Virus record (IMG/VR): IMGVR_UViG_3300034178_000058
Location: 1 to 34,553 of that record
Origin: a virus
Taxonomy: Duplodnaviria; Caudoviricetes
Direction: 5' to 3' (one strand)
Length of the DNA stretch: 34,553 nucleotides
Made by a program: the position numbers and the translations under genes. Below are positions 10,469 through 29,552 of this stretch, piece by piece (position 1 is the first letter of the stretch; every line of letters starts with the position of its first letter). Under the pieces are notes generated by a model, which saw nothing but the letters and a program-made list of their open reading frames with translations, was not told where the DNA came from and did no database searches.

Positions 10469-10481
10469 AGCCCGCGGGGCG

Positions 10482-10506: not shown

Positions 10507-10514
10507 CGTCTCGC

Positions 10515-10667: not shown

Positions 10668-11525
10668 ATGGCCGTCGCAGACCTGAGCCCCATCTACCAG
10701 CGCGACTACGAGGCGAACCTCCGTTCGCTCTCGCAGCAGCGCGGCTCGAAGCTCCGGCAGTACTGCATCGAGCGCAACGCCCCCGACATGCACCTCTGGG
10801 ACCGCATCGGGGCGCTCACCTCCGTCGCGCGCACCGCCGGCGGCGCCACCGCTGACACTGCGGTCGCGCTGACGCGGCGCCGCTCCAAGCCGAGCTCGTT
10901 CGAGGTCTCGAACCTCGTCGACCCGGACAACATCGCCCAGGCGACGCAGGACCCGCGGAGCGACATCCTCCGCGAGCACGCGAACGCCCACGGCCGGAAG
11001 TTCGACGACATCATCCTCACGGCCGCGCTCGGCTCGACCGAGGACGAGGCCGGCGCCCCGACCGTCTTCCCCGTCGGGCAGGGGCTCGGCGGCGTCGCCC
11101 AGGCGTTCGACTTCAACTTCATCACGTCGGTGAACGAGAAGTTCTGGGCGAACAACGTCCCGCAGGACGAGGAGAAGGTCTTCATCATCCGCCCGAACGG
11201 CGCGAAGAAGCTCCTCCAGCTCACCCAGGCGACGAGCACCGACTACGTGATGGCCCAGGCCCTCGCGTCCCGCGGCATCGTCGAGAACTGGCTCGGCTAC
11301 ACGTGGATCGTGAGCAACCTGCTCCCGAACGTCGCCGGCCTCCAGTACTACTACGTCGCGATGACCAAGCGGGCGATCGGCCTGCACATCACGAAGGACA
11401 TCTGGACCCGGGTCACCGAGAGCTCCGAGAAGTCCTACGCGTGGCGCATCTACAGCGCCTTCGCCGCCGGCGCGACGCGCATCGAGGACGAGCACGTCGT
11501 CCGCGCGCACGTGCTCGAGTCGTAA
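10668..11525 (+). CDS. Major capsid protein (podoviral, BPP-1 Bbp17-like)
   Basis: YEANLRSLSQQRGSKLR, D.IG, A.A.GRKFDDIILTAALG, S.DY, WLGYTWIVSN.L, GATRIEDE.VV. Confidence 0.92.
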   Translation: MAVADLSPIYQRDYEANLRSLSQQRGSKLRQYCIERNAPDMHLWDRIGALTSVARTAGGATADTAVALTRRRSKPSSFEVSNLVDPDNIAQATQDPRSDILREHANAHGRKFDDIILTAALGSTEDEAGAPTVFPVGQGLGGVAQAFDFNFITSVNEKFWANNVPQDEEKVFIIRPNGAKKLLQLTQATSTDYVMAQALASRGIVENWLGYTWIVSNLLPNVAGLQYYYVAMTKRAIGLHITKDIWTRVTESSEKSYAWRIYSAFAAGATRIEDEHVVRAHVLES

Positions 11526-11531
11526 CCGCTG

Positions 11532-11571
11532 CCGAGGGCGAGGCGGCCTCCCTGCGCCGCTTCGCCCTCGG
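11532..11571 (+). terminator. Strong hairpin after capsid gene (partial terminator or mRNA stabiliser)
   Basis: 16-bp stem CCGAGGGCGAGGCGGC/GCCGCTTCGCCCTCGG with one G-U pair; only a weak U tract. Confidence 0.55.
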
Positions 11572-11601
11572 TCCTTCCGAGCAGGGACGGAGTCACCCCA
11601 C

Positions 11602-11832
11602 ATGGCGTTGAGAGTCGGAGCTACCGAGGCGGAGCGCGAGCAGGTCATCGCCGGGCTGAGGGCCGGCAAGTCCTACAAGGAGGCCACCGCGCCGCTGCGC
11701 GCCGTCGTCGAGGAGCAGTGGTTCAGCCGCAACGAGCGGCACCTCCTCGAGGTCGCCGAGCACGGCGAGCAGAAGGCGCCGCTCGTCGATCCGCCGAAGG
11801 ACGACAAGAAGCCGAAGGACGACAAGAAGTAA
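11602..11832 (+). CDS. Hypothetical protein
   Basis: GGAG RBS; ends in an 18-bp tandem duplication encoding PKDDKK x2. Confidence 0.65.
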   Translation: MALRVGATEAEREQVIAGLRAGKSYKEATAPLRAVVEEQWFSRNERHLLEVAEHGEQKAPLVDPPKDDKKPKDDKK

Positions 11833-11844
11833 GGAGACCCCGCC

Positions 11845-12264
11845 ATGGCCACGATGATCCGCGTGAAGCTGGAAGCCCCCACGAGCGGCGCCACGGTCGA
11901 CGCGGCGGCCGTCACCCTCGGCGTCTGCCTGACGGACGAGCTCGTGGTCATGGTGGGGGACACCGTCGCCCGGCAGCGGCTCGGCAGCGAGACCCGGGAG
12001 GCTCTCCTCCTCCTCGCCCGGAAGTCGCGGTCCGGGATCGTCGTCGCGGCCGGTAGCGTCCGGACCTTCCTCGGCGTGCCCGGCCTCACCGCCGACCAGA
12101 TCGACGCGGCAGCCGCAACCGAGCTGAACGCGGTCGTCCCCACGGAGACCGAGGTCGGGCTCATCGTCGGCGCCAACGCGAGTTCCCTGCTCGACCGCTC
12201 CGAGCTGGTGCTCGCCGCGGTCCGCCGGGCGCTCGACGCCTTCGTCCCCACCTTCGGCGTCTGA
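11845..12264 (+). CDS. Hypothetical virion protein (possible decoration)
   Basis: TAAGGAG RBS; lies between capsid and tail tube A. Confidence 0.6.
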   Translation: MATMIRVKLEAPTSGATVDAAAVTLGVCLTDELVVMVGDTVARQRLGSETREALLLLARKSRSGIVVAAGSVRTFLGVPGLTADQIDAAAATELNAVVPTETEVGLIVGANASSLLDRSELVLAAVRRALDAFVPTFGV

Positions 12265-12271
12265 GGCCAGC

Positions 12272-12847
12272 GTGGACGCCGTCGGGATCTGCAACCTCGC
12301 GCTCGGATGGCTCGGAGAGCGCGCCATTGTCGCCCTGGACGGGACGCTCGGCACGACCGAGGACCTGTGCGAGCGCATCTACCCGGAGGCGCTCCGTGCC
12401 GCGCTCGAGGCGCGCGCCTGGACGTTCGCGACCCAGCGGCTTCAGCTCGCGCCGGCGGAGGCGACCGGGCTCGCCGACTTCCCCTCGAGGTACCCGATCC
12501 CGGCGACAGTGATCCGCGTCCTCACCTGCGACGACGGCAGCGGGACGCAGGAGATCGAGTGGCGGCGGGAGGGCGCGTACGTTCTGACCGAGACCTCGCC
12601 GGTGACGCTCTACGCGAAGGCGCTCGTCCTCGTGGAGGACGCGGCGCTCTTCTCGCCCGGCTTCGGGCGCGTGGTGGCGGCGCGGGTCGCGGCCGACCTG
12701 GCCGGGCCGATCACGGAGAACGAGGAGCTCGCGACGGCCATGGAGCGGCGCTACCTCGCCGAGCTCGCGCAGGCGGCGACGCGGGACGGGCTGCAGGGGA
12801 CGTCCGAGAAGGTCCGGTCTAGCGGGCTCGCCGCGAAGAGGTGGTGA
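12272..12847 (+). CDS. Tail tubular protein A / adaptor (T7 gp11-like)
   Basis: VGICNLALGWLGE..I...YP......LEARAWTFA..R..L; F...VAARVAADLA.PIT. Confidence 0.9.
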   Translation: MDAVGICNLALGWLGERAIVALDGTLGTTEDLCERIYPEALRAALEARAWTFATQRLQLAPAEATGLADFPSRYPIPATVIRVLTCDDGSGTQEIEWRREGAYVLTETSPVTLYAKALVLVEDAALFSPGFGRVVAARVAADLAGPITENEELATAMERRYLAELAQAATRDGLQGTSEKVRSSGLAAKRW

Positions 12848-12850
12848 GCC

Positions 12851-14974
12851 GTGGCCTACTCGCCGATCCAGACGTCGTTCGCGGGGGGCGAGCTGTCGCC
12901 GCGGCTGAGGGGCCGCGTCGACCTGGACGTGTACGGGAAGGGGCTCTCGTACAGCGAAAATTTCATGCACCTGCCGCACGGCCCGATCGTCGGCCGCAAC
13001 GGCTTCGAGTGGATCGACGAGCTGAACGCGGACCTCGGCGCCACCCCGAAGATCATTCCGTTTCGTCTCGCCGGGCAGCAGGACGCCATCCTCGCGCTCG
13101 GTCACCTCGCGATGCGGATCTACAAGGCCGACGGCGGCCAGGTGCAGACGATGGGCGCCGAGCTGGTCCCGCCCGGTGGGTTTCCGCCGTGGGTCCGGAT
13201 CGCTGGGAACGTCGACTACAACGCGACGGACAAGAGCTTCTACTTCCTGGGTGGTGGCGAGTCCATGCGACTCACCGTCAACACGCTGGAGGCGGGATCA
13301 CACCGTTGGGCCCTCGACTCAAAGAATAACAGCGGAGGCTTCTCTTTCGGGTGGGAGACCAGGTTTGGAAGCACCCCGGGCGGCCAGGAGCTGGGACGAG
13401 TGACCGGCTGGATCGGTGGCGCGGAGTGGGGGGCGCAGACGCCGCGAACGATCGAGATCCCTGGCGCGATGACGGTCTACATCACCGTTACCTCCACCTC
13501 GCACTCGGTCACCGCGGGATGGCTACGGGCCATGTCCTTCCGCTCTTCGTTGTCGACCGTCGCCCTGCCGGCGCCGTGGACATCGGAGCAGGCGCACGAA
13601 CTCCAGTATGCGTCGGAGACCGGCAGGGATCGCATGATCCTGGTGCACCCGAACGTCGAGCCACGCATCGTGACGTGCGTCGACGGAGACGCGACCTGGG
13701 ACACCCAGACGCTCACGCAGGTGATGACCGCAGAAGCCACCCTCGCATCCAAGCCCGCAGAGTGGGCGGGCACCAACTGGCCGGGGGTCATCGAGATCGC
13801 CAACGGCCGCTCCTGGTGGTCGGGGACGCCCGCGGAGCGCAACAAGCTCTGGGCGTCGAAGTCCGGAAAGCCCTTCGACTTTCTCCAGGCCTCCCCGGTC
13901 ATCGCGTCCGACGCCATCATCCAGACCCTCGCAACCAAGGGAGCGATCCGGTGGCTACGCGGCGCGATGCACATGCTCTGCGGTACGGAGGAGGGTGAGC
14001 ATTCCATTGTCGCGTCCGGGGGCGTGCTCTGGCAGGGGGACATGGATGCCCGATCGGAGTCGGCATTCGGCGCGGCGGCTGAGCAGGCCGTCCACGTCGG
14101 GAACAAGGCACTCTTCGTCTCGGCCGACAGACGGAAGGTGCGCGCGCTCGGCTACGACCTCCAGACGAACGGTTGGGTGCAGGCCGACCTGACGTTCCCA
14201 GGGGAGCACCTCACGGCCGGTGGCATCGACGAGATCCACCACTGCCGCAACCCGCACGGCACGATCATCCTGCGCGTGGGGGACGGGTTCGTCGCCGCCA
14301 CGTACGACGAGGCGTCGCAGACGCTCGCTTGGTACAGGATCACGACCGTCGGCGCGGTCCTCTCTGGCGGCGCCTCCAACGGCCCCGAGGGCTCGGCGCT
14401 CTGGATCGCGGTTCAGCGCGCGAATGGCGTCATGCTCGAGAGGATGTGGCTGTCGGACCGGGGCGATCCGGTCGCGCTCGACTCGCAGGTGATGAAGGGC
14501 GTGGAGGCAGACGGCAGGATCATCGGGCTCGATCACCTGGAGGGCGAGACGGTGACTGTGGTCATCGGGACCGTCGTCATCGCGGGCCTCGTGGTCGCGG
14601 CCGGCGCGGTGCAGCTCGACGTGGAGCACGCCGGCGGCGCCGCGACGATCGGCCTGCCGCTCCCGGCCATGAAGGCGGTGACGCTCCCGCCAGAGGTCGT
14701 GAGTCGACGCGGCAGCTCGGCCGGGTCGAAGAAGCGGTACGCGCAGATCGGCGTGCGCCTCAACCGCTCCGCGTTTCCTATCGTCAACGGGCATCGCGTC
14801 CCCGACCGGACGCCGGCGACGCCGATGGACGAGGGCGAGCCGCTCTTCACTGGCGACGTCCAGATCCGGAACCTCGGCTGGGAGGAGAACGGCGCGATCA
14901 CCATCGAGCAGGACCTGCCGCTGCGCACGGAGATCCTCGCGATCTTCGGCGACCTGCAGGTGAACCAGACGTAG
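12851..14974 (+). CDS. Tail tubular protein B / nozzle (T7 gp12-like)
   Basis: IQTSFAGGELSPRL.GRVD...Y; WPG...NGR.WW.G; LWASKSG..FDF; C-terminal IEQDLPL..EILAI. Confidence 0.92.
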   Translation: MAYSPIQTSFAGGELSPRLRGRVDLDVYGKGLSYSENFMHLPHGPIVGRNGFEWIDELNADLGATPKIIPFRLAGQQDAILALGHLAMRIYKADGGQVQTMGAELVPPGGFPPWVRIAGNVDYNATDKSFYFLGGGESMRLTVNTLEAGSHRWALDSKNNSGGFSFGWETRFGSTPGGQELGRVTGWIGGAEWGAQTPRTIEIPGAMTVYITVTSTSHSVTAGWLRAMSFRSSLSTVALPAPWTSEQAHELQYASETGRDRMILVHPNVEPRIVTCVDGDATWDTQTLTQVMTAEATLASKPAEWAGTNWPGVIEIANGRSWWSGTPAERNKLWASKSGKPFDFLQASPVIASDAIIQTLATKGAIRWLRGAMHMLCGTEEGEHSIVASGGVLWQGDMDARSESAFGAAAEQAVHVGNKALFVSADRRKVRALGYDLQTNGWVQADLTFPGEHLTAGGIDEIHHCRNPHGTIILRVGDGFVAATYDEASQTLAWYRITTVGAVLSGGASNGPEGSALWIAVQRANGVMLERMWLSDRGDPVALDSQVMKGVEADGRIIGLDHLEGETVTVVIGTVVIAGLVVAAGAVQLDVEHAGGAATIGLPLPAMKAVTLPPEVVSRRGSSAGSKKRYAQIGVRLNRSAFPIVNGHRVPDRTPATPMDEGEPLFTGDVQIRNLGWEENGAITIEQDLPLRTEILAIFGDLQVNQT

Positions 14975-14983
14975 GAGGCGATC

Positions 14984-15379
14984 GTGGATCCGGGACTCAT
15001 CAGTTTGGGGATTGGGGTCGCCAGCTCGGGCGCGCAGTGGTGGCTGCAGAAGAAGCAGGTCGCCGAGCAGAAGCGCGTCGCGCTCGAGGAGGAGCGCCGG
15101 ACGCAGCTGCAGCGCCAGGCCGTGCTCGGCGGGGCGACGGCGCGCGGCGCCGCCTCCGGCTTCGAGTTCGAGTCGCAGGGGCTTCAGAAGTACCTCGGCG
15201 ACATGGAGGCCGAGTTCTCCCGACAGCGCCAGTGGGCGCTCGACCAGGCCCGCCGCGGGGCGAAGCTCGGCAACCTCGCCGCCGGCATCGGCCTCGCGAC
15301 CGGGATCGCCGGTTCCGCCAACGACTACATGAAGTCGAACAACTGGTTCCTGACGAAGGCGCTCGGGAGCCCAGCGTGA
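14984..15379 (+). CDS. Small internal virion (ejection) protein, gp14-like
   Basis: GGAGG RBS; hydrophobic ends, Q/A-rich helix, G.ATARGAASG motif. Confidence 0.75.
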   Translation: MDPGLISLGIGVASSGAQWWLQKKQVAEQKRVALEEERRTQLQRQAVLGGATARGAASGFEFESQGLQKYLGDMEAEFSRQRQWALDQARRGAKLGNLAAGIGLATGIAGSANDYMKSNNWFLTKALGSPA

Positions 15380-17172
15380 AGCTCCCCGCGATCGAGTACG
15401 GCTCCGTCCAGAACGCCGTCGCCCCGGCGCTCGGCCGCGTCTCTCAGGCCGTCGGCGGCCTGTCGGACACGGTCCGCGCGGGGCTCGACGCCTTCGGCCA
15501 GGAGTTGGTCCGGACGCAGTCCCAGAAGGCCGCGGCGGACCTCTCGGCGGGCCTCGCCGACCTCGAGGCGTCGATCGAGCGCACCCCCTACCTCACGACG
15601 CAGCAGGTCCGGGACGCGCTGGGGGACGACGTGGAGGGTCTCCCCTCCGAGGTGAAGAGCCAGATCACCCGCAAGGCGCTCGACATGCGCTCCGGCGAGA
15701 TGGTCGACGTCGACCGGGACGACGTCCCCTCGTGGGCGGTCGCCGGCGCCATCTTCTCGAAGCGGTCGAAGGAGCTCGTGAAGCTCGCCTCGGGGGGGAT
15801 GTCGGTCGGCGCCGGGTGGCAGGCCCGGTTCGAGGCCGGCGCCGCCGAGGACGTCCACGCTCGGCAGGTCCGGCTCGAGCAGGGGCAGTTCCGCGCCATG
15901 CTCGGCGACCAGCGGAAGACGCAGGCCGAGACGATCGAGAGCCACCTCCGGGCCGGGAACTGGGACGCCGCCCAGAACGTGATCACCACCTCGAAGGCCT
16001 TCGAGCCGGCCGAGAAGGAGCAGCTCGTCGGCGCGGTCGAGCTGGCGCAGCAGAAGCGGCCGCTCGAGGACCTGGTCCTGAAGGGCATCGAGTCGACGCG
16101 GGACGTCCTCGAGGCGGGGAAGCTCATCGCGGGGCTGGAGAGCGGCGACGGCTTCGCGCGGCTCGAGGAGAAGGACCGGATCGATTGGAAGCGCCGCCTC
16201 GAGGCGGAGGTGAAGGGCTTCGAGCAGGACCAGAAGGAGGCCGTGGCGAACCGCTTCAAGGAGGCGGACGAGACCGCGCGGAACGGGATCCTCGACGCCT
16301 ACATCCAGGCGGCCGGGAAGCAGCTGCCGCGCTCGCTCATCCCGACCCCTGGCACCGTGTCGAGTTCGACGCTGCAGTGGGCGATTGGGCTCGTGGAGAG
16401 CACCCGGCCCGGACAGAAGGCCGTGGAGACCGACCTGAAGGCCTACGCCGAGCTGACCGGGCTGGCGACGACCAACCCGGAGCAATTCAAGAACGCCGAC
16501 CTCGCTCCGTACTTCTCCCGGCTGTCCGTTCCCGACGCGCGGCACTTCATCGACCTGCAGCGGACGCTGAAGACCGAGGGACCGAACGGCGTGAAGTACA
16601 CGAGCTTCTTCGGCCCGCAGGAGGAGACGAACACCCGGCTCGCCTTCCACGGTCTGCACGTGACCGGGAAGGACGCCGAGGACGACGCCGCGGCCGTGGG
16701 CTACGTCCAGCGCGAGGTGAACCGGGCGCTCTTCAACGCGACGCGCGCGAAGGCGGGGAAGGGCAGCTCCGCGCCGCTCACGCCCGCCGAGCAGACCGCG
16801 ATCGTGACGCCGCTCGTCGACAAGCTCGTCAACGCGAAGGCGTGGAAGGCGGAGGCGAAGGGCTCCGGGATCCCGGTCGATTACTCCATGGCGGTGAAGG
16901 ACAGCACGATGCGCCGCGGCAAGGGCGTCGCCGTCGACGAGCAGAAGGACACCTACGAGATATTCCAGGCCCGGCAGAATGACATCGCCATCGGATGGAA
17001 CCGGAACGCGGGCACGCGCGCGCTCACCCCGGACGACGAGCTGCGGATCTTCGACATCGTCTGGACGAAGGGCGAGCAGATCCGGGAGGCACTCAAGACG
17101 GCCGGCAAGCCCGCGGGCTCGACGGCGATCACCGACATGGCGGTCCGCGCCTACCTGCGGGGCGTCCAGTGA
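15376..17172 (+). CDS. Internal virion (ejection) protein, gp15-like
   Basis: GTGA-coupled start (MKLPAIEY); helical 598 aa; position. The track's extension to 14173 overlaps two real genes. Confidence 0.75.
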   Translation: MKLPAIEYGSVQNAVAPALGRVSQAVGGLSDTVRAGLDAFGQELVRTQSQKAAADLSAGLADLEASIERTPYLTTQQVRDALGDDVEGLPSEVKSQITRKALDMRSGEMVDVDRDDVPSWAVAGAIFSKRSKELVKLASGGMSVGAGWQARFEAGAAEDVHARQVRLEQGQFRAMLGDQRKTQAETIESHLRAGNWDAAQNVITTSKAFEPAEKEQLVGAVELAQQKRPLEDLVLKGIESTRDVLEAGKLIAGLESGDGFARLEEKDRIDWKRRLEAEVKGFEQDQKEAVANRFKEADETARNGILDAYIQAAGKQLPRSLIPTPGTVSSSTLQWAIGLVESTRPGQKAVETDLKAYAELTGLATTNPEQFKNADLAPYFSRLSVPDARHFIDLQRTLKTEGPNGVKYTSFFGPQEETNTRLAFHGLHVTGKDAEDDAAAVGYVQREVNRALFNATRAKAGKGSSAPLTPAEQTAIVTPLVDKLVNAKAWKAEAKGSGIPVDYSMAVKDSTMRRGKGVAVDEQKDTYEIFQARQNDIAIGWNRNAGTRALTPDDELRIFDIVWTKGEQIREALKTAGKPAGSTAITDMAVRAYLRGVQ

Positions 17173-20100
17173 GCGGCCCCTGGGACGAGCTCGCGGCCGA
17201 GGCACCGAGCTCCGAGGACCGGGAGCGGACGAGCGGAGTGTCGACCTCCCAGGCCCTGGTCGCCGCCCAGCCTTCGCCGGCCGCCCCCGCCGCGCCGAGC
17301 TGGGCCGAGCTCGCGAAGGACGCCCCGACGACGCAGGATCTGCTCGCCGACCCCGCCCGCGCGGCGCAGGTCGCGGATGACGTCCAGGGGCTCTCCTTCC
17401 TCGAGGCCGTCTTCCGCGGCTCTGGGAGCTTGCTCGCCGGCGGCATCGGCGAGGCCCTGTACCGGGGCAGGCTGAACGATGAGATCTCCGTCATCGGCTA
17501 CCGGCAGGCGATCGGCGTCGCCACGCCGGAGGAGATCGCCAGGGCGGAGACGCTCGAGCTGCTCGCCGCGTCGGTGCCACGTCCGAAGACGGGGCTCGTC
17601 GCCCGGGGGCTGCGCGCGGCGGCCGAGTCGGCGCCGATGATGGTCGGGTCGGCCTGGGAGGGGGGTCCGCTCGCCATCGCCGGCGGCAGCATCGGGGCGA
17701 TCGTCGGCGGAGTGGGCGGCGCCATCGCTAGCGGCGGGCCGGGCGTGGTGCCGGGCGCGATCGCCGGTGCGAAGTTCGGGGCGAGCGTGGGTGGCCGAGC
17801 CGGCATGACGGTCGCGACCGGGAAGCGCGAGATGGGCAGCGCCTTCCGGGAGTACAGCAGGATCCCGGGAGTGACCCCCGAGCAGGCCACCTTCGCGGCG
17901 GCCATCGTCGGCGCGGCGAACGGGATGCTCGAGGTGCTGCCGCTCGACATCGTCTTCCAGCTCCCCGCCCTGAAGACCCTCGTGAAGGGCGGCATCGCGA
18001 AGGACTTCTTCCGGTCGGCCCTCAAGTCCAATACCGGACGCGCGGCGGTCGCTCGCGCGGCGGCTCGCGTCGCCGGCGGCATGACGCTCGAGGGGCTCAC
18101 CGAGGCGATGCAGGAGCTCAACACCATCCTCGGTGGCGAGCTCATCGACGAGAAGACCGGCGTCTCGATCGACTGGAACCGGGTCGGCGAGGCGGGGCTT
18201 GAGGGTGGGCTTGCCGGCGGCGTGTACGGGGCGCCTGGCGTGGCGGCCGGTCTCCGGTCCGACGTTACCGAGGCCAGCCACGCGCGCGAGCGGGCCCAGT
18301 TCTTCACTGCGCTGGGGGAGGCGGCCGCGGAGTCGAAGACCGTAGCCAACCTGCCGGACGTCGCCCGCGCCCACGTGGAGGCCATCCAGGCGCGCCAGGG
18401 GGGCGCCGTGGAGTCGGTCTCGGCGCCCGCCGAGCAGCTCCTGACCCTCTTCCAGGCGAACGACATCAGCCTCGAGCAGGTCGCCCGCCGGATGCCCGCG
18501 GTGGCGCGCCAGATCGAGGAGGCGGCGGGAAACCCGGCCGTCGAGATCACCATCCCGACGGCCGACTTCGCGGTCAACGTCGCCCCGCTGAAGGGTTACG
18601 AGGGGCTGGTGCCGGACCTGCGTGTCGGCGACGAGCTGACGCTCCGGGAGGCCGAGAAGGTCGAGAAGGAGGCGAAGCAACTCGCCGCCGCCACGGCCAA
18701 GGCCGACGCGAAGCCGGCCCCGGCGACCCCGGAGCAGCGGGTCCTTGCCGACGTCGCCTCGAAGCTCGAGGCGGCCGGGCAGGACGCGGAGACGGCGCGG
18801 CTGAACGCCGCGCTCTGGGCCGCCTTCAGCCGGACGATGGCGGCGCGGACCGGCAAGGGCGACGCCTTCTCGTTCTACGAGGGGCTCGGGCTGCAGGTGG
18901 AGCAGCAGGAGCTCGGGCCGCTGCAGGCGCCTGGCCTGGAAGTCACGCGCTCCTCGGAGCTCCTGACGAAGCACCTGGTCGGCCTCGACCGGCCCGGCAA
19001 GGAGTCGCTCTTCTTCACCGACCCGAACACGGGAGCGCTGAACCGGCGGGCCTTCGAGGCGCTCCCGGCGGACCCGGCGCGGCCGCTCGTAGCCCACATC
19101 TCCGTCGAGGGCACGAAGTGGGCCAACAAGAGCGGCCACGCGACGGGGAACCTGCTCTACCGGGCGGCGGCGAAGGCGCTCCGCGGGGCCGCGCCGCTCG
19201 TGGCGAAGGTCGGCGGCGACTTCGCGGTCCGGGTGAAGGACCAGGCGCAGCTGACGGCGATCCTCGAGAAGGCGCAGGCGGCCATGCCGGAGGGGATCGC
19301 GCTCACCGCCGAGCTCGGGCCCGACCTGGAGACGGCGGGCAAGACCCACGCCGGGACGAAGAAGGGGCTCGAGGGCGCCGGGAAGCGGGCGCTGCGCGGC
19401 GCGAAGCCCCTCGGCGCGAAGGTGGAGACCGCGGCCGAGATGGGGCTCTCCGCGGAGGAGCTGGCGCCGGCGGACGTGCCGGCCGAGATCCGCGCGCTCC
19501 TGCCGAACGACGAGGCCGCCTTCAAGGCCGCCTTCCTGGACGGGAACGGGGCGCTGACGGGGGAGGGGTTCTTCCTCCTGGAGAAGCTCGACAAGGCCGC
19601 GCACGTGGCCTCGATCGACCTGAACGGGCTCCGGGCCATCAACGAGAGGTTCGGCGAGGAGTTCGGGGACCAGATGCTGCGGGCGGTCTCGCGGCAGGCC
19701 GCGAAGGCCTATGGCGCCGAGTTCGACTTCGCGCACCTGAGCGGCGACGAGTACGCGGCGCGGTCCAACGATCCCAAGGCCTTGCAGGCGTTCGTTGACG
19801 ACCTCGCCGAGCTGTGCGCTACTATCACACACGAAGACGACACGCCCGCCGCGGTCACCTTCGGATACGGAATCGGAGAGACCTATGACGCAGCGGACTC
19901 CCTCGTCGAAGGCGACAAGCTCCTCGGCCCCGAAGTCGAAGCTGCCGCCCGCGCATCCCGGCTTGAAGGTCGGCGGGGTGACGGTGCTCAAGGCCAACGA
20001 GCAGATCAGCCCCGACGAGTTCGGCGCCAGGGTTTCGCAGGCGGCCGAGCAGTTCTTCGAGAAGCAGCGCAAGTAGCCGGCCAGACCAGCCTCGAGCAGC

Positions 20101-23100
20101 CCCCGTCGCGCGAGGGCGCCGAGCCGCGCGGCCGCGTCACCTTCCCCGAGAGCCGAGAGTGGTTCCGGGTCACCCTCACCGGGTCGGCCAACCTCTCGAC
20201 GTTCGTCCACGAGTCGGGCCACGTCTTCCTCGAGGTCCTCCGGCAGACCGCCGAGAAGGACCCCGGCCTGAAGGCCGACCTCGCCGCGATCCACCAGTGG
20301 CTGGGCGTCCCCCTCTCCGGCGAGTTCACCACCGACCAGCTCGAGCGGTTCGCCCGCGGCTTCGAGACCTACCTGCGCGAGGGGCGCGCGCCGGCGCCAG
20401 GGCTCGTCGAGGTCTTCGACTCGATGAAGGCGTGGCTCCTCCACGTGTACCGGACCCTCCGCGGCCTGGACGTCGAGCTGACCGACGAGGTCCGCGGCGT
20501 CATGGACCGGCTGCTCGCGACCGAGACGGAGATCGCCCAGGCGCGGCACAACGCCGGGCTCCTCCCGATCGCGTCGGCCGAGCTCGCCGGCATGAGCGAG
20601 GCGGAGTACGCGGCGTACCGGGAGAGGTTCGAGAAGGGGGCCGCGGCGGCCCAGGCGGAGGTGGAGCGCGATTCCCTGTCGGCGCTGACCCGGACGCTCG
20701 GCGAGGAGCGCGCGGCCGTCCGGACCGACATGGAGGAGCTCGCCACGCTGGAGCCGGTCTTCAACCTCCGCGAGTTCCTCCGGACGGGCGCTCGGCTCGA
20801 CGGCGTCGAGGTCGACGAGGCGATCGCCGGCGCGAAGCTCGACCGGGCCTCGCTCGAGGGGCTCACCGACCCGAAGGGGATGCGCCGGCTCGCCCCGTTC
20901 GTCGCGGCCGAGGGCGGCTTCTCCGCGGACGACCTCGCGCCGTACTTCGGGTTCAAGGATGGCCACGAGCTCGTGCAGGCGCTCGTCACCACCCCGCGGC
21001 GCGAGGCGTGGGTGAAGGCCGAGACGGACCGCCGGATGGCCGAGCGCTACCCCGACAGCGTCATCGCCAACCTGGCGAAGCAGGCCGTCGCGGCCGTGCA
21101 GCAGAACGACGGCATCGTGCGCGCCCTCCGGGACGAGCTCGACGCCGTCGGCAGGCGCGTCGGCGCGGGCCCGGCGCGCTCGGCGATCGAGGTCCTGCGG
21201 CGTGCCGCGCGCGAGCGTGCGGTCCAGATGACCGACCTCGAGCTCCGCCCGGACAAGTACCGGCGCGCCGAGGCCGCGTCTGCGCGGGAGTTCCTCGAGC
21301 ACCTGGCCGGGAAGCGCTACGCCGAGGCGCACGACGCGAAGCGGCGCCAGCTCTGGAACCACTTCATGGCGGCCGAGACCGCGAAGGCGAAGAAGGAGGG
21401 CGAGCGGATCCGCTCCTACCTCCGCGGCCTCGAGGACGTCGGCACCCTGCGCCGGATCGGCAAGGCCGGGCAGCGCTACGTGGAGGCGATCCGCGCGCTC
21501 ATCGACGGCATCCAGCTCCGCAAGGAGAGCGGGAAGGCGGTCCGCAAGCGCGCCTCGCTCGCCCGGTACGTCGCCGAGATGGAGGCCGAGGGCGACACCA
21601 TCTCGCCGGCACTGAAGGAACTCGGCGAGCTGAAGTCCTGGCGGTCGATGACGATCGAGGAGCTGCAGGGCGTCGAGGCCGCGGCCGCGAACATCGAGGC
21701 GATGGCCCGGCTGAAGGGGAAGCTCCTCCTCGGCGGCGAGAAGCGGGACCTTGCGCGGACGGCGGCGGAGCTCTCCGGGCACGTCCGGACCAACCTCGGA
21801 ACGGAGTCGAAGCCGACCCCCGGGGACCTCGGGAAGCTCGAGAAGGCGCGGGAGTGGCTCCGGTCGGCCGACGCCGACATGAAGAAGGTCGAGTTCATCT
21901 GCCGCATCCTGGACGGAGGGAAGACGGCCGGCCTCGCCCACTCGCTCATCTTCCAGCCGCTGCGCGACGCGCAGAACGCCCGGAACGCGATGAACGAGCA
22001 GGTCCACGGCGCGCTGATGAAGCCCTTCCAGGAGCTCACGCTCGCGCGCCGGAAGCGGTACGCGGAGAAGGTCGGCTTCCTGTACTCGCCGAAGGCCGGG
22101 AAGATGGTGACGCTCACCCGGCGGAACCTCCTGGCCATCCTCCTCAACCTGGGCAACGCGGGGAACGCCGAGCGGCTCCTCGCCGGCTACGGCTGGACGC
22201 GGGAGGCGGTCCTCGCCCGGCTCGACCAGTTCCTGGACGACGGCGACCTCGCGATCGTCGAGCACATCTGGAAGACGGTCGACTCACTCTGGCCGGCCAT
22301 GAAGGGGCTCTCCGAGCGCCACGTCGGCCTGCCGCCCCCGCGCGTGGAGGCGACCCCCTTCCAGCTCCCCGGCGGCCGGAAGCTCTCCGGCGGCTACTAC
22401 CCGATCGTGAAGTCGCGCCGGATGAGCTACCTCGGCCAGCAGCTCGCCGAGCGGGAGGCCGCGCTCTGGGAGGCGAACTTCTTCGCGCCCGTCGTCGAGC
22501 ACGGCTTCACGAGGAGCCGCGGGAAGGACCTGAGCCCGCTCGAGCTGAGCCTCGACGTCGTCCCGGCGCACCTCGACAAGGTCATCCACTACCTGACCCA
22601 CTACGAAGCGATCCGGGGCGTCGACCGGCTCCTGCAGCAGGGGGACGTCCGGGAGGCGATCACGGAGGGGCTCGGGCGCGAGTACTTCAACGGCTTCCGG
22701 CCCTGGCTGGAGAACATCGCCTCGGACGGGAACCTCGCGGAGCCGCTCGTTTGGTACGAGCGCGTCTTCCGGCACCTCCGCTTCGGGTCGTCCGTGGTCC
22801 TCCTCTTTGGCAAGCTCCCGACGGGCGTGAAGCAGGCGCTCGGGCTCTTCACCTCCGGCAAAGAGGTGCAGAGGCGGCACATGGTCTCCGGCCTGCGGAA
22901 GTTCCTGCGCGAGGGGTGGGCCGAGGTCCGGGAGCAGAGCCCGGAGTTCAAGTTCATCGACAAGCAGCTCGACCGCGATGCGCGTGAGCTCTTCACCGCG
23001 CTCGAGTCGAGCTTCACCGAGCTCGGTGGGCTGAAGCGGAAGGTGATCGAGTTCGGCGCGATGCCGATCATGCTCGTCCAGAAGACGGTGAACGCGATCA

Positions 23101-23765
23101 CCTGGTACGGGGCGAAGGAGCAGGCCCTCGAGGAGGGGCACGCCAACCCGAACGCCTACGCCGACGCGGTCGTCTCGATGACGCAGACCGGCGGCGGGGC
23201 GAAGGACCTGGCTGCCATCCAGCGGGGCGGGGAGCTGCGGAAGCTCTTCACGGTGATGTTCAGCTACCGGAGCGTCCTCTACAACCTGCTCACGGAGCGG
23301 ACGGGGAAGACGGGCGGGAAGGCCGCGCTCGAGTACGCCGCCCGCTTCTGGTGGCTGGTCTTCCTCCCGGTCGTCGCCGAGCAGCTCCTGATGAACGGGG
23401 TCGGGGACGACGAGGACGCAGACGACGTGGCGAAGCGGCTCCTGCTCGAGATGGCGCTCCTGCCGGTGAGCACGGTCCCGGTGGTCGGGGACGCGGTCCA
23501 GGGGGCGGTGCAGCATCGCCCGCCCCGCGGCGCCCCGTGGCTCGACACGATCTACCGGAGCGTGGTGACGGCCGGGAAGGTCGTGCAGGGCGAGGACCTC
23601 GGGAAGGCCGATGCGCGGGCGGTGGTCGACCTGGTGGGCTCGACGATGCAGCTACCGACGGGCGGGCTCTGGAACCTCGGGCTCTTCACCGACGAGCTGC
23701 TCTCGGGCGAGCTGGAGGAGCCTGTCCAGGACCTGCTCTTCCGCAACCCGTCGAAGTGGGAGTAG
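17169..23765 (+). CDS. Large polyvalent internal virion/ejection protein (2198 aa) with Gly-rich membrane segment, two GGDEF-like domains and HExxH motif
   Basis: GTGA-coupled start; gp16-like position; TDPNTGALNRRAF...VGGDF; IDLNGLRAINERFG...GDQML...LSGDEY; STFVHESGH; LSGGYYPI. Confidence 0.85.
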   Translation: MSGPWDELAAEAPSSEDRERTSGVSTSQALVAAQPSPAAPAAPSWAELAKDAPTTQDLLADPARAAQVADDVQGLSFLEAVFRGSGSLLAGGIGEALYRGRLNDEISVIGYRQAIGVATPEEIARAETLELLAASVPRPKTGLVARGLRAAAESAPMMVGSAWEGGPLAIAGGSIGAIVGGVGGAIASGGPGVVPGAIAGAKFGASVGGRAGMTVATGKREMGSAFREYSRIPGVTPEQATFAAAIVGAANGMLEVLPLDIVFQLPALKTLVKGGIAKDFFRSALKSNTGRAAVARAAARVAGGMTLEGLTEAMQELNTILGGELIDEKTGVSIDWNRVGEAGLEGGLAGGVYGAPGVAAGLRSDVTEASHARERAQFFTALGEAAAESKTVANLPDVARAHVEAIQARQGGAVESVSAPAEQLLTLFQANDISLEQVARRMPAVARQIEEAAGNPAVEITIPTADFAVNVAPLKGYEGLVPDLRVGDELTLREAEKVEKEAKQLAAATAKADAKPAPATPEQRVLADVASKLEAAGQDAETARLNAALWAAFSRTMAARTGKGDAFSFYEGLGLQVEQQELGPLQAPGLEVTRSSELLTKHLVGLDRPGKESLFFTDPNTGALNRRAFEALPADPARPLVAHISVEGTKWANKSGHATGNLLYRAAAKALRGAAPLVAKVGGDFAVRVKDQAQLTAILEKAQAAMPEGIALTAELGPDLETAGKTHAGTKKGLEGAGKRALRGAKPLGAKVETAAEMGLSAEELAPADVPAEIRALLPNDEAAFKAAFLDGNGALTGEGFFLLEKLDKAAHVASIDLNGLRAINERFGEEFGDQMLRAVSRQAAKAYGAEFDFAHLSGDEYAARSNDPKALQAFVDDLAELCATITHEDDTPAAVTFGYGIGETYDAADSLVEGDKLLGPEVEAAARASRLEGRRGDGAQGQRADQPRRVRRQGFAGGRAVLREAAQVAGQTSLEQPPSREGAEPRGRVTFPESREWFRVTLTGSANLSTFVHESGHVFLEVLRQTAEKDPGLKADLAAIHQWLGVPLSGEFTTDQLERFARGFETYLREGRAPAPGLVEVFDSMKAWLLHVYRTLRGLDVELTDEVRGVMDRLLATETEIAQARHNAGLLPIASAELAGMSEAEYAAYRERFEKGAAAAQAEVERDSLSALTRTLGEERAAVRTDMEELATLEPVFNLREFLRTGARLDGVEVDEAIAGAKLDRASLEGLTDPKGMRRLAPFVAAEGGFSADDLAPYFGFKDGHELVQALVTTPRREAWVKAETDRRMAERYPDSVIANLAKQAVAAVQQNDGIVRALRDELDAVGRRVGAGPARSAIEVLRRAARERAVQMTDLELRPDKYRRAEAASAREFLEHLAGKRYAEAHDAKRRQLWNHFMAAETAKAKKEGERIRSYLRGLEDVGTLRRIGKAGQRYVEAIRALIDGIQLRKESGKAVRKRASLARYVAEMEAEGDTISPALKELGELKSWRSMTIEELQGVEAAAANIEAMARLKGKLLLGGEKRDLARTAAELSGHVRTNLGTESKPTPGDLGKLEKAREWLRSADADMKKVEFICRILDGGKTAGLAHSLIFQPLRDAQNARNAMNEQVHGALMKPFQELTLARRKRYAEKVGFLYSPKAGKMVTLTRRNLLAILLNLGNAGNAERLLAGYGWTREAVLARLDQFLDDGDLAIVEHIWKTVDSLWPAMKGLSERHVGLPPPRVEATPFQLPGGRKLSGGYYPIVKSRRMSYLGQQLAEREAALWEANFFAPVVEHGFTRSRGKDLSPLELSLDVVPAHLDKVIHYLTHYEAIRGVDRLLQQGDVREAITEGLGREYFNGFRPWLENIASDGNLAEPLVWYERVFRHLRFGSSVVLLFGKLPTGVKQALGLFTSGKEVQRRHMVSGLRKFLREGWAEVREQSPEFKFIDKQLDRDARELFTALESSFTELGGLKRKVIEFGAMPIMLVQKTVNAITWYGAKEQALEEGHANPNAYADAVVSMTQTGGGAKDLAAIQRGGELRKLFTVMFSYRSVLYNLLTERTGKTGGKAALEYAARFWWLVFLPVVAEQLLMNGVGDDEDADDVAKRLLLEMALLPVSTVPVVGDAVQGAVQHRPPRGAPWLDTIYRSVVTAGKVVQGEDLGKADARAVVDLVGSTMQLPTGGLWNLGLFTDELLSGELEEPVQDLLFRNPSKWE
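19795..19825 (+). promoter_or_regulatory. Candidate internal sigma70-type promoter for the nested gene
   Basis: TTGACG-N19-TACTAT, built from AT-ending codons atypical for the host frame; spacer is long. Confidence 0.4.
19885..20076 (+). CDS. Nested out-of-frame gene (63 aa) inside the ejection protein gene
   Basis: GGAGAG RBS before ATG; third-position GC bias switches to this frame from about 19940 to the stop. Confidence 0.65.
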   Translation: MTQRTPSSKATSSSAPKSKLPPAHPGLKVGGVTVLKANEQISPDEFGARVSQAAEQFFEKQRK

Positions 23766-23776
23766 GCCCGGGGGCG

Positions 23777-23801
23777 CGCTGTCCCCGGGGGCCCGGAGAA
23801 T
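23777..23801 (+). promoter_or_regulatory. Candidate late-promoter motif, copy 4 (before tail fibre; leaderless)
   Basis: CGCTGTCCCCG-N8-GAGAAT-N7-ATG; overlaps a perfect inverted repeat GGCCCGGA/TCCGGGCC. Confidence 0.55.
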
Positions 23802-23808
23802 CCGGGCC

Positions 23809-25266
23809 ATGCGAAAGCTCATTCCGGCCCTGATCCTCGCGCTCGCGGTGCCGCTCGCCGCGATCGCCGTCGTCACCTCCACCAGCTCGCGCGTCACCCC
23901 GGACCCGACCGGCAACGGGGTGACGACCGCGTTCACGTTCACGTTCCCGACCTATGCGTCGAGCCACATCGAGGTCTTCCTCGGGGGCGTGAAGCAGGTC
24001 GCCGGGTTCACGGTCTCGCTGAACGCGAACCAGACCAGCTCGCCGGGCGGCACGGTCACGTTCACCGTGGCGCCGGCGGCCGGCGTGGTGGTCCGGATCC
24101 AGCGCACGCTGCCGCTGACGCAGGAGACGGTCTACGCGCCTTACAGCGCGTTCCCGGCGAAGACGACGGAGAAGGCGCTCGACCGCTCGGTGATGATCGC
24201 TCAGCAGCTCCAGCGGACCGCTGACGTGTGCGACGACAATGGGGTGTGTTCGGCGCTGACTGCGCCGACCTTCACCGGGGCGCTCATCGGGAACGCCACT
24301 TCGGCCACTTCGGCCACTTCGGCGTCGTCGATAGGAGGCTGCTCCTGGCAGGACGACTCGTTCAACTGCACAGGCACTAACCCCCTCTCGCAGACCGAGG
24401 TGCAGGCGACCTCTTCCGATGGACTCAACAATGCTCATCTCAGGGCCAACGCCGGAGCATCAGGCACGGTAGGGCTGACGCTGGACGGGGGCGCTAGTAG
24501 CGCCCACCTCTCCCTCAACAGTTCTGGGACTGCACTCGAGGTCTCCGGCAGCCCAGCAGTCACGGCATTGGTCTCCAGCCTCGCAATTTCTGCTCCGAGC
24601 TTCACGGCGACTCTCTCCGATCCGGCGCAGAAGGCGGCGGTTACTGTCGGACCCGGATTTTCATCGATCGACATGAACATGAGTGATTGGGAATATGCGT
24701 TCTTGACTGCTTCGGTCGGGAACGTCTTCGCGGGATTTTCGGCTGGGGTGGCAGGCGGTCTACGCATGAATGTCGGCGTAGAGGGGGCTGGGCCCTATAT
24801 CGAGGGTGACACCGGCTCCGATCTCCTCTTTCGGTCCTTCACCACGATCCGCAGCGCCAATTTCACGCATGACAACGGCGCAACCGCCGCCCCCGCCTGC
24901 GCTGCGAGCACGCGTGGCATGACATACTTCACGCAGGGCGGCACGGGCGGGCAGGATCTCTTTCAGGTGTGCGCGAAGGATGCGGATGGCGTCTACGCGT
25001 GGCGCGCGGGCTACGCACGCATCACGTCGGTCCGGGACGTCGCTCTGCTCGCGAATGGCGCGTGCGAGACGTGGCAGGTAGGCCTTATCGGCGCCAGTGT
25101 CGGGGCCGACGCGCTGTCTACGTCGCCCGCCGGTCTGGATCCTCGCGTGCAAGTCGTCTGTCACGTCGAGAGCGCCGACCTCGTCGAGTTCCACGCGTGC
25201 AATTTAGGCACGGTCGCCATCGATCCCGCGTCCTACACCTACCCGTGCCGCGTGCTCAACCCGTAG
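23809..25266 (+). CDS. Tail fibre with T7 gp17-like N-terminal adaptor, preceded by a signal-peptide-like segment
   Basis: GNGVTTAFTFTFP...GGTVTF..APAAG..V.I.R..P.TQ...EKALDR..MIAQQL; GNATSATSATSA; lower-GC C-terminal half. Confidence 0.85.
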   Translation: MRKLIPALILALAVPLAAIAVVTSTSSRVTPDPTGNGVTTAFTFTFPTYASSHIEVFLGGVKQVAGFTVSLNANQTSSPGGTVTFTVAPAAGVVVRIQRTLPLTQETVYAPYSAFPAKTTEKALDRSVMIAQQLQRTADVCDDNGVCSALTAPTFTGALIGNATSATSATSASSIGGCSWQDDSFNCTGTNPLSQTEVQATSSDGLNNAHLRANAGASGTVGLTLDGGASSAHLSLNSSGTALEVSGSPAVTALVSSLAISAPSFTATLSDPAQKAAVTVGPGFSSIDMNMSDWEYAFLTASVGNVFAGFSAGVAGGLRMNVGVEGAGPYIEGDTGSDLLFRSFTTIRSANFTHDNGATAAPACAASTRGMTYFTQGGTGGQDLFQVCAKDADGVYAWRAGYARITSVRDVALLANGACETWQVGLIGASVGADALSTSPAGLDPRVQVVCHVESADLVEFHACNLGTVAIDPASYTYPCRVLNP

Positions 25267-25302
25267 CGAGGCGCTCGCCCCGCCGACCATCCCGACACCC
25301 AC

Positions 25303-25340
25303 CGGCCCGCTCCTGAACCTCAGGGCGGGCCGTTTCCGTT
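25303..25340 (+). terminator. Rho-independent terminator of the late operon
   Basis: CGGCCCGC(T)CCTGA-acc-TCAGGGCGGGCCG stem followed by TTTCCGTT. Confidence 0.75.
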
Positions 25341-25357
25341 CATTCTGGAGGGCGTCC

Positions 25358-25379
25358 CGGGAGCCATTCGGGAGCCAAT
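25358..25379. repeat. Integrase arm-type site pair (left)
   Basis: CGGGAGCCATT CGGGAGCCAAT tandem. Confidence 0.7.
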
Positions 25380-25491
25380 GCACCGCCGAACGGTACCGCT
25401 TGGCGATCTCGGGGCTCGCGCGGCCGCTGGCGTTCAGCCCATTCTGCGCGGTCTTGAGCGTCTGGCGCTATCAGGAGCCGTCAGGCCGTGA

Positions 25492-25532
25492 GGCTTAAAA
25501 GGCCGATGCTCTACCAATTGAGCTAGCGCCTC
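25492..25532 (-). tRNA. 5' half of tRNA-Lys(UUU); attP core, not a complete tRNA
   Basis: GAGGCGC TA GCTC AATTGGTA GAGC A TCGGC CTTTTAA GCC: acceptor 5' strand, D arm and anticodon arm; no T arm follows. Confidence 0.85.
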
Positions 25533-25542
25533 GAACCTACTG

Positions 25543-25986
25543 TTACGACTTACGTTTTCTCGGCTTCCGGCCTCCCGTCGAACGCCTCGGGGAGCCAATC
25601 CGGGAGCCAATCGCCAGCCTGGCGCGGTCTTCCGCGGTCCAGGCGTCCGGCCTCAGGTGAGTGTACCTGCGCGTCACTTCGGTGCTGGAGTGGCCAAGTA
25701 GCACGGCCAGCCGCGTCATGTCGCCCCCGGCCGTCACCCAGGCGCTCGCCCCGGTGTGGCGCGTCGCCTCGTACCAGGTGACCTCGGGGAGAGCCGGGTC
25801 GCGGCCGAGCGCGGCGGCGCGGCCGAGCAGCTGGTCCCGGACCTGCTTCAGGCGGCGCTCGGCGGTCTTCCGGTTGGCGGGGGTGTCCTCGAGGCGGAGG
25901 GAGCGCTCGACCCAGCGCCCTCCATCCCGGACCTTCAAGTGGAGGATCCCGCGGTGGACGGTGAGGCAGCCCTTCCACTCGGTCAT
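25543..25986 (-). pseudogene. int: Internally deleted tyrosine integrase (arm-binding domain fused in frame to box II)
   Basis: N-terminal W.ERSLRLEDTPANRKTAE; C-terminal YEATRH...LLGHSS...TRRYTHL; only 147 aa, lacking core-binding domain and box I. Confidence 0.8.
25589..25611. repeat. Integrase arm-type site pair (right, inside int 3' end)
   Basis: GGGGAGCCAAT-C-CGGGAGCCAAT, the same motif as 25358-25379. Confidence 0.7.
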
Positions 25987-25995
25987 GGGGGAGCC

Positions 25996-26265
25996 CTACT
26001 CGGAGTCGAGTGGCTCGGCCTTCCACTGGCCGAGTGGCATCGCGTCGTCGATCCGAACGGGATACCCGTGCAGGAAGTCAGGGTTCGGCCGGCCGAATTC
26101 GTCTCGCGGCGAGCAGGAAAGCGAGTCCAGCGTCGCTCTCGACATGACGAGGCCCAGGCGAAGGTCGCTACTGGGGAGCGCCTGGATCTTCTCCAGCGTC
26201 TCGATGAGCGCCTCGAAAGAGAGCTCCTCGGTGAGCGCGTTGTCGACGTTGCTGATGTGCGTCAT
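25996..26265 (-). CDS. Hypothetical protein resembling an HK97 capsid A-domain fragment
   Basis: LVMSRATLDSL...DEFGRP...LHGYPVRIDDAMPLG. Confidence 0.55.
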   Translation of the reverse strand: MTHISNVDNALTEELSFEALIETLEKIQALPSSDLRLGLVMSRATLDSLSCSPRDEFGRPNPDFLHGYPVRIDDAMPLGQWKAEPLDSE

Positions 26266-26292
26266 GGGATCGGCCCGATATGATCGGGGAGC

Positions 26293-26601
26293 CTACCCCT
26301 TGCCGAGCGAGTCGAGAACTGCGGCCGTCGAGACCCCTACGCCCGACCCTCCCCCGGAGAGGTAGGCGTCGAGGTCCTCGCGGCGGATGGCCCAGGAGCG
26401 GCCGCGCTTCTTCGCGGGCAGGGAGCCGGAGCGGATCCAGCCGAGGACGGTCTTCTCGGCTCTGTGGGCGCGCTGCGCGGCGTCGGCCGTCGAGAGGATC
26501 GCCGGGCCGCCTCGCGCGAGGGCGCGCTCCGCCCCTCGCTCCGCCGCCTGCTCGAGGAGGTTGGCGAGCTGCTCCTGGGTGAGGACGGCGACGGCGGTCA
26601 C
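26293..26601 (-). CDS. xis: Excisionase-like HTH_17 DNA-binding protein
   Basis: LSTADAA......KTVLGWIRSGSLPAKKRGRSWAIRREDLDAYL; near int. Confidence 0.85.
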   Translation of the reverse strand: MTAVAVLTQEQLANLLEQAAERGAERALARGGPAILSTADAAQRAHRAEKTVLGWIRSGSLPAKKRGRSWAIRREDLDAYLSGGGSGVGVSTAAVLDSLGKG

Positions 26602-28919: not shown

Positions 28920-28922
28920 GGC

Positions 28923-29550: not shown

Positions 29551-29552
29551 GG

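Follow-up and report, generated by a model that had tools for sequence, protein, structure and literature searches.

Does the coding sequence of a phage enzyme also hold, in another reading frame, the gene for a small protein that restrains that enzyme? The question is raised by a 34,553-nucleotide (nt) stretch of phage DNA (IMG/VR record IMGVR_UViG_3300034178_000058, positions 1 to 34,553; this whole stretch is referred to as the window), in which a 2198-residue large polyvalent protein carries a tandem GGDEF module followed by a linker. An earlier note, made from the sequence alone, placed at the end of this module a hidden gene with its own promoter and ribosome-binding site, and proposed that its product inhibits the GGDEF enzyme. 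We are confident that this unannotated nested gene is real, and from its position and its co-occurrence with the enzyme we estimate a probability of about 0.5 that it encodes a separately expressed antidote, or cognate inhibitor, of GGDEF.

A probable nested gene in the +1 frame

The nested open reading frame (ORF) lies on the same strand as the host ORF, wholly inside it and in its +1 frame, and is present exactly as the earlier note had it: 63 codons, opened by an ATG at 19885 that follows GGAGAG. The gene and its putative expression signals are as follows, in window coordinates.

19795 to 19800, + strand: -35-like hexamer TTGACG, kept in relatives L001 and L002 despite a change of the host residue from V to I
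19820 to 19825, + strand: -10-like hexamer TACTAT, after a 19-nt spacer; in L021 and L063 the -10 lies at 17 nt, in the same register
19875 to 19880, + strand: Shine-Dalgarno-like GGAG(AG), with GGAG 6 nt before the ATG, recognized from sequence and weak as a family statistic
19885 to 20076, + strand: nested +1-frame gene (ATG at 19885, TAG stop at 20074 to 20076), 63 residues, 6.7 kDa, pI about 10, from ORF and codon analysis

The frame-wise codon bias that had drawn attention to the locus is borne out, as 59 of the 63 nested codons end in G or C compared to 18 of 45 in the host frame over 19941-20073. For reference, such codons number 2091 of 2198 in the host gene overall and 30 of 41 in its frame across the promoter zone (19770-19892). 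When a codon model was built from genes of the phage itself, the stretch 19935-20075 gave ~38 bits per 30 codons in the +1 frame and about -25 in the host frame. Everywhere else the host frame is rated as coding, making this the only frame switch within the host gene, and no other same-strand embedded ORF in the window attains a coding score of at least 25 bits. The switch claimed by the earlier note holds from ~19940, but not from the ATG: over roughly the first 19 nested codons, which coincide with the last GGDEF helix, the coding signal is still that of the host frame. The span that it gave to the feature is also only partly retained: position 19795 belongs to the -35 box, and its TTG is not a likely start codon, whereas the ATG at 19885 stands. 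This ATG is preferred over two internal candidates that were rejected, because TTG 19963 is CTG in L001 and a start at GTG 19978 would cut the conserved hairpin. Two further +1 ORFs with an ATG, of 32 and 53 codons, occur in the host gene; their fraction of G/C-ending codons (GC3) is 0.72-0.74, and they lack a Shine-Dalgarno (SD) sequence.

The predicted promoter, TTGACG-N19-TACTAT, is found upstream of the ATG as described, with TACTAT ending 59 nt before it. The pattern TTGAC-N-TAnnnT, which was picked after the site had been seen, has a single match in the window, at the nested gene, against 0.09 expected, and 8 of 100 shuffles reach one match.

Conservation of the nested gene and of both frames

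DNA of relatives was gathered by protein and by motif, and 33 distinct GGDEF loci were kept. Left out were same-contig or same-sequence duplicates (L002, L003, L018-L020, L028, L064-L069, L071-L074 and L076), L049 (an N-run with an assembly frame break), 28 genome loci without a GGDEF match, and L139, whose GGDEF is distant. A +1 ATG that opens at least 45 codons and lies, relative to the GGDEF end, between codons -23 and -9 is present in 32 of the 33 loci, whereas the same test in five control windows finds 1, 0, 2, 2 and 2; in the exception, L084, the nested start lies a few codons later. In all 27 loci examined, the body of the ORF has a higher GC3 when read in the +1 frame than when read in the host frame. 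A sigma70-like site in a fixed window, scored with an approximate weight matrix, stands out from synonymous recoding (P<0.05) in 22 of the 33 loci, against 0, 2 and 2 of 33 in control windows. Open-frame length is uninformative for a single locus, the probability of an open frame given the host residues being 0.75 for the window. The nested start is kept across the deep GGDEF tree, in single and tandem clades alike. These family statistics provide good support for an overprinted gene that has its own expression signals and travels with the GGDEF module, as the earlier note had proposed.

The relatives display two layouts. In the first, as in the window, a distant promoter is combined with an SD-led ATG at codon -15. 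In the second, TAnnnT is positioned exactly 6 nt before an ATG at codon -21 or -22 (7 of 10 cases, compared to 0 of 21 for ATGs at -15 or -11). A -10 box at this distance from the ATG is the geometry of leaderless mRNAs, and in the loci of this type (L004, L006, L007, L008, L012, L014 and L039) TAnnnT makes use of rare GTA/ATA-type host codons. Loci from Myxococcota genomes that were added later, five of them found via the GGDEF profile alone, contain the ORF in 6 of 6 cases, with a GC3 of 0.78-0.91 in the +1 frame versus 0.46-0.64 in the host frame. A prophage with the same gene order and the nested gene resides in a closed 9.4-Mb chromosome (G232:C1, ~2290000-2320000; L177 and L178). Among cultured phages, we found no tandem-GGDEF relative and no match to the small protein, just weak single-GGDEF matches in YuA-like phages.

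The earlier note had named two compensating sequencing frameshifts as an explanation that would undo its case. This explanation is rejected, as contigs from four studies (4 of 4 runs; X3 and X4 may be the record's source, whereas X5 and X9 are not so marked) span the region with zero substitutions and zero gaps, and relatives keep both frames. The host proteins of L001 and L002 are 79% identical to that of the window, and both frames, both hexamers, the GGAG, the ATG and the TAG are kept; their nested products are 70% identical. The host frame is itself real, since 66 database proteins pass through the linker as one chain, and a Q[GAD][FY] motif occurs in the linker of 35 of these 66 homologues compared to 5 of 66 in a control stretch. 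Both reading frames thus appear constrained, because the nested ORF is kept in relatives and the host linker is kept as one chain with Q[GAD][FY]. One segment is probably under dual constraint:

20028 to 20080, + strand: 53 nt identical in L001 and L002, with the host-frame QGF linker motif over the nested C-terminal helix and stop

A structured RNA beneath these invariant 53 nt was considered and rejected (without an Rfam match; folding z 0.72). RNA run X9, in which two contigs cover 19577-20175 with no differences, was likewise rejected as evidence of a separate transcript, as contigs show no strand, start or level, and depth is present in all 30 bins of 10000-29999. With respect to the linker motifs, Q[GAD][FY] is located at 20028-20036 in the window and is also seen after the Zeta domain of L082, and an L/F-x-Q motif (window 20091-20099) stands just ahead of the next domain in many homologues; it is possible that they are processing or packaging signals.

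The nested product and its family

The nested product contains a small predicted core, which is also captured by the family profile.

19963 to 20070, + strand: family core, a predicted beta-hairpin (residues 27-35) and helix (residues 43-62), from model and profile

The predicted model (predicted local distance difference test score, pLDDT, of 72) is polar and consists of the hairpin followed by the helix; residues 1-20 are of low confidence, and the N-terminus is rich in S, T and P, as dictated by the host helix. The protein is basic, with 10 K/R versus 5 D/E residues. A single-sequence homologue search with it returned zero candidates, it has no match in Pfam, PHROG, PADLOC, PDB sequences or Atlas and none there to a known antitoxin or immunity family, and a fold search of the 63-residue model gave a best Z of 3.0 (root-mean-square deviation 2.8, 39 residues aligned), which is not meaningful. 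A profile of nested products has 29 matches among 1.8 billion proteins, 26 of them 56-125 residues long. The matched proteins were probably called from nested positions, because most start with the same forced N-terminus, and a final profile search added no new or named family members. Some clades retain the upstream helix alone, and a short variant is peculiar to the single-GGDEF clade.

One family member is free-standing. It is located at L168:10548-10766 on the - strand (G386:C877, a bacterial assembly) and begins at the homologous ATG, upstream of which ~16 GGDEF codons remain. Its surroundings, in a chromosomal locus, comprise cellular genes, repeated palindromic elements, a helix-turn-helix (HTH) gene and an unnamed 1265-residue protein, and no viral relatives of it were found. 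This copy looks like a host capture into a variable locus, and in one case it shows that the ORF can persist without the host frame. Two variations on the small protein were also observed. Protein P0074 (182 residues) contains three copies of the hairpin-helix core, and a search for its genomic context and viral relatives found none. In L007 and L025 a second +1 ORF, encoding a hydrophobic, membrane-like small protein, directly follows the first nested ORF in the same linker.

The tandem GGDEF enzyme and its slot

The enzyme module preceding the linker is a tandem, whose last strand and helix (in copy 2) overlie the promoter, SD and first codons of the nested gene.

19011 to 19376, + strand: GGDEF copy 1, degenerate; K49, N52 and H56 are kept in 63, 62 and 59 of 63 homologues, and both metal-binding acidic residues are lost
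19533 to 19922, + strand: GGDEF copy 2, an SGDEY variant; the first-strand Asp and the G-D-E are present in 63 of 63 homologues

The host protein matches the Pfam GGDEF family at 25.4 bits (cut-off 23.8), and a model of the tandem (pLDDT 93, predicted template modelling score 0.88) has GGDEF domains as its best Foldseek matches (E about 6e-6). Across homologues the copy 2 motif is xGDE[YF], and at the base-reading position of copy 1, 35 of the 63 have N and 28 have D. The fold is therefore that of a diguanylate cyclase, but the two equivalent metal-bearing GG[DE]EF half-sites of the canonical enzyme are not present. According to PMC6456294, GGDEF enzymes act as two half-sites and the base-reading position sets specificity; in the Hypr GGDEF enzymes that it describes, each contributing half an active site, a change of the base-reading Asp alters specificity, and these enzymes, which are homodimers, carry Ser/Thr there. 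As compared to Hypr enzymes so described, the window protein is an intramolecular tandem with one metal site and N or D at the base-reading position. Because one metal site is conserved and GGDEF enzymes act as two half-sites, the tandem is likely active but non-canonical, perhaps yielding a linear or mixed dinucleotide.

The place occupied by this module is a variable slot. We fetched 80 relatives via the downstream domain, 77 of them without this GGDEF, and the slot scan covered 48 of 76 distinct loci, chosen for high GC3. The slot contains GGDEF, Zeta toxin, ART-PolyVal, PBECR, LPD3, MuF_C or GNAT domains, or nothing. Among the 80 relatives, nested +1 ORFs are found behind 3 of 3 GGDEF and 3 of 3 Zeta-like P-loop domains (L082 ~2960-3120, L096 ~3745-3920 and L143 ~3485-3650, the L143 domain having been identified by eye without a Pfam match), as well as behind a few unnamed domains (L086, L128 and L145). 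No nested gene was detected in short effector-free versions such as L118, L125, L131, L140, L150 and L152. Nested genes are thus tied to particular enzyme modules, as they occur behind all three GGDEF and all three Zeta-like domains and were not detected behind ART or PBECR domains or in effector-free versions. Zeta is a textbook toxin with a protein antitoxin. Elsewhere, L096 has an additional nested ORF behind a ddrB-ParB domain, and the distant GGDEF of L139 (~560-760), which looks canonical, has behind it a +1 ORF with no relation to the nested family.

Proposed role of the nested product and competing explanations

An antidote role is favored by the fixed position behind an enzyme domain, by the Zeta-like parallel and by the host-captured copy. 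As in toxin-antitoxin and effector-immunity pairs, a small gene is fixed at the 3' end of an effector domain. The setting is that of a temperate phage, with an integrase fragment and an excisionase in the window and a relative that is a prophage in a closed chromosome. The proposed mechanism has four steps. Based on gene order, the giant protein would be made late, packaged and injected. The product of its one-metal-site tandem would then be a dinucleotide, linear or asymmetric, that interferes with nucleotide signalling or defence in the host. Next, the housekeeping RNA polymerase of the host would read the internal promoter, so that production of the small protein, following entry and also in lysogens, would not depend on the late operon. 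In the last and weakest step, the small protein would bind the GGDEF module, ending the signal after entry and quieting newly made giant protein, and lysogens would be protected from the same effector delivered by related phages.

Several results weigh against an antidote role, or against the strength of its support. The earlier note had called for the nested ORF and synonymous-site constraint to be sought in homologues; the ORF is there in 32 of 33 loci, but frame-wise substitution counts favor the +1 frame in just 3 of 7 close pairs, and the window/L001 pair, with 4 synonymous and 12 non-synonymous changes in the +1 frame, is not among them. With close relatives among them, the 33 loci are not independent, and the first loci had already been seen when the test windows were fixed. 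Taken over the family, the SD gives little signal (P<0.05 in 4 of 27 loci, combined P 0.06), and a standard promoter scan of the window (spacers of 16-18 nt) finds none at the nested gene, because the spacer there is 19 nt, longer than canonical. The products diverge much more than the enzyme active site. Their hairpin-helix core reaches at least 20 bits in 13 of 25 tandem loci scored, a scoring that is partly circular because members were found with the same loci, and the clades of L011, L023, L024, L029 and L059 lack the hairpin, which is unexpected for an active-site plug. Among 151 family genomes, the free-standing copy turned up in its own and in no other, which makes it a single case from one assembly, and its neighbors have no defence-family match save a generic HTH. 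Finally, no nested ORF was found behind ART-PolyVal and PBECR domains by a codon test that has little power in low-GC loci; this lack indicates that an antidote is not a general need.

The foremost alternative, rather unlikely in our view, is that the nested gene is real but encodes an independent accessory, such as an early host-takeover factor or an exclusion factor expressed in the lysogen, that acts on a host protein and hitchhikes with the module. Its site would then reflect a floppy linker that tolerates overprinting and a last GGDEF helix that happens to offer an ATG and SD; indeed, a residue pair capable of a +1 ATG is present at that place in 66 of 66 homologues. From clade to clade the body of the product gives way to another, an unrelated-looking small protein stands behind the distant GGDEF of L139, and one copy survives without GGDEF. 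The fast divergence of the products and the existence of other effectors without nested genes also keep this alternative alive, and phages are known to make small peptides whose target is a host diguanylate cyclase (PMC8085984). An independent accessory is harder to reconcile with a start kept at the same place over the deep GGDEF tree, with effector-free versions that lack the nested gene, and with the family profile, which finds no copy behind other domains in 80 control loci, although it is a weak profile that missed L084.

An improbable alternative is that the product partners GGDEF positively or indirectly, as an activator, a chaperone, or a nucleotide receptor or sponge. The linkage evidence for such a partner is the same as for an antidote, the degenerate half-site of the tandem makes its output and regulation non-canonical, the protein is basic, and YfiN-interacting peptides (YIPs) activate a cyclase, as PMC8085984 reports. 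However, an activator needed at injection would come too late unless packaged, the separate housekeeping-type promoter would suit action after entry or in the lysogen, and the predicted fold is very small for a nucleotide receptor.

Very improbable is a silent or artefactual feature, due either to compensating sequencing errors or to a chance ORF in a GC-rich linker. An open +1 frame is common given the host residues, and the host gene contains two other such ORFs, but these have a lower GC3 of 0.72-0.74 and no SD, and the family statistics and held-out loci agree with each other; the error version is largely refuted by the four gap-free runs and the intact frames of relatives. Least credible of all is a programmed +1 frameshift that would yield a shorter giant protein with the nested tail and no separate gene, since, although the +1 coding signal begins only near 19940, past the GGDEF end, the ATG is conserved in 32 of the 33 loci, 22 have promoter-like sites and 7 the leaderless geometry, the free-standing copy starts at the homologous ATG, the profile matches include no in-frame GGDEF fusion, and the region has no unusual RNA structure.

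The host gene and the phage

Further features of the host gene are listed below.

17169 to 23765, + strand: host gene, a 2198-residue large polyvalent protein of a T7/P22-like podophage, its virion role taken from gene order
17289 to 17429, + strand: LPD22 match in a Pfam search, 28.0 bits, just below the 28.6 cut-off
20208 to 20222, + strand: HESGH motif of the next host domain, a sequence motif without a Pfam match

GTG 17169 is the most likely start of the host gene and gives 2198 residues. It is the last of the putative internal virion (ejection) genes, located between the tail-tube genes and the tail fibre, and its position after the tail-tube genes suggests that the giant protein is an internal virion protein. 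Several unrelated domains (the LPD22 match, GGDEF and an HExxH-bearing domain downstream of GGDEF, which we take to be zincin-like) share this one polypeptide, as in large polyvalent proteins. Proteins P0048 and P0065 contain the GGDEF module and the R/G-rich linker in a different ~3770-residue backbone with other Pfam domains, which suggests that the GGDEF cassette moves between phage groups.

In this 34.5-kb phage record, the + strand carries the genes for terminase, portal, capsid, tail tube and fibre, and the - strand those for recombination together with an excisionase and a fragment of an integrase. Its gene content is that of a temperate podophage, with lysogeny and recombination genes accompanying those for terminase, portal, capsid and tail. 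At least half of the stretch was found in five sediment-metagenome runs. The phage host is likely a myxobacterium, because relatives occur in genomes that bear the labels Archangiaceae, Myxococcales, Myxococcaceae and Archangium, and a sample of 401 Myxococcota genomes contained them in 7 cases. The integrase ORF (window 25543-25986, - strand) encodes only 147 residues, with its N-terminal part fused to the catalytic C-terminal end and the middle absent. Adjoining it is a tRNA-Lys-like piece (25463-25530, - strand; Rfam tRNA score of 26 bits, below the cut-off, and no call by ARAGORN), which looks like an attP core.

Comparison with known systems

In bacteriophage lambda, Rz1 is a small gene wholly inside the longer Rz gene, in its +1 frame, with both frames kept, and it encodes a lipoprotein with a signal peptide and a lipobox Cys. 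The locus described here resembles Rz/Rz1 in that a +1 gene is nested wholly inside a longer gene and both frames are kept. However, its 63-residue product has no Cys or lipobox, hydrophobic signal or membrane anchor, its host gene encodes a 2198-residue putative virion polyprotein instead of a spanin, and the nested gene has its own promoter-like site. In type II toxin-antitoxin, polymorphic-toxin immunity and epsilon/zeta systems, a small gene is tied to an effector. The locus shares with them a small gene at the 3' end of an enzymatic effector in a variable slot, where Zeta-like domains likewise have a nested ORF. Unlike in these pairs, the gene of the effector itself contains that of the candidate partner, and the putative effector is one internal part of a polyprotein.

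GGDEF domains in phage polyvalent proteins have been described, with host nucleotide-signalling interference proposed and nearby cassettes likened to polymorphic toxin systems (Iyer et al. 2017, PMC5512222). The host gene, with its LPD22, GGDEF and HExxH domains, encodes a protein of this kind. The passages of that work consulted do not mention out-of-frame genes, internal promoters or cognate inhibitors; in them 'nested' appears twice, each time for a hairpin fold, and 'linker' not at all. As compared to the proteins covered there, the GGDEF of the window is a tandem with one degenerate half-site. According to PMC8085984, the YIPs of PB1-like phages are membrane-helical products of free-standing early genes and activate a host enzyme through the transmembrane part of that enzyme. 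They resemble the nested product as small phage proteins tied to a GGDEF enzyme, which the nested protein would putatively modulate. However, it is predicted to be a polar hairpin-helix, and a tblastn search over 50,697 phage records gives one match (E 2), which is not in a Pbunavirus.

Embedded +1 genes, effector-immunity pairs, GGDEF polyvalent proteins and phage peptides acting on a host cyclase are thus already known kinds, and by the features compared the nested product is neither a spanin nor a YIP. A search of a paper collection with few subscription titles, covering listings and the openings of abstracts, turned up no account of genes nested in polyvalent proteins. The present analysis adds the controlled family statistics, the leaderless layout, the comparison of effector slots, the free-standing bacterial copy and the closed-genome prophage.

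Implications

Because standard gene callers discard any ORF that lies within a long gene, annotation has missed this family in many temperate phages of what are likely myxobacteria, and the R/G-rich 'linkers' of polyvalent proteins are the shadow of a second gene. Because their DNA is shared, an effector domain and its putative antidote would move as one cassette. We tentatively extend this to a broader picture, which as a whole is somewhat doubtful: giant virion polyproteins would be built from swappable cassettes, in which the last codons of an effector hold the promoter and start of its +1 antidote and recombination cannot separate the two, and the system would comprise a new nucleotide signal, a first-in-class GGDEF inhibitor that gives lysogens immunity to the effector injected by related phages, and a stand-alone defence in myxobacteria. 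The pair is small (about 320 and 63 residues), and the prophage in the closed G232 chromosome is a candidate test system. If the nested product is indeed an antidote, it would show that a phage controls a signalling enzyme delivered by its virion, and it would provide an effector-specific layer of superinfection immunity and a small natural GGDEF inhibitor; the presence of a nested gene would then predict which polyvalent domains are active effectors.

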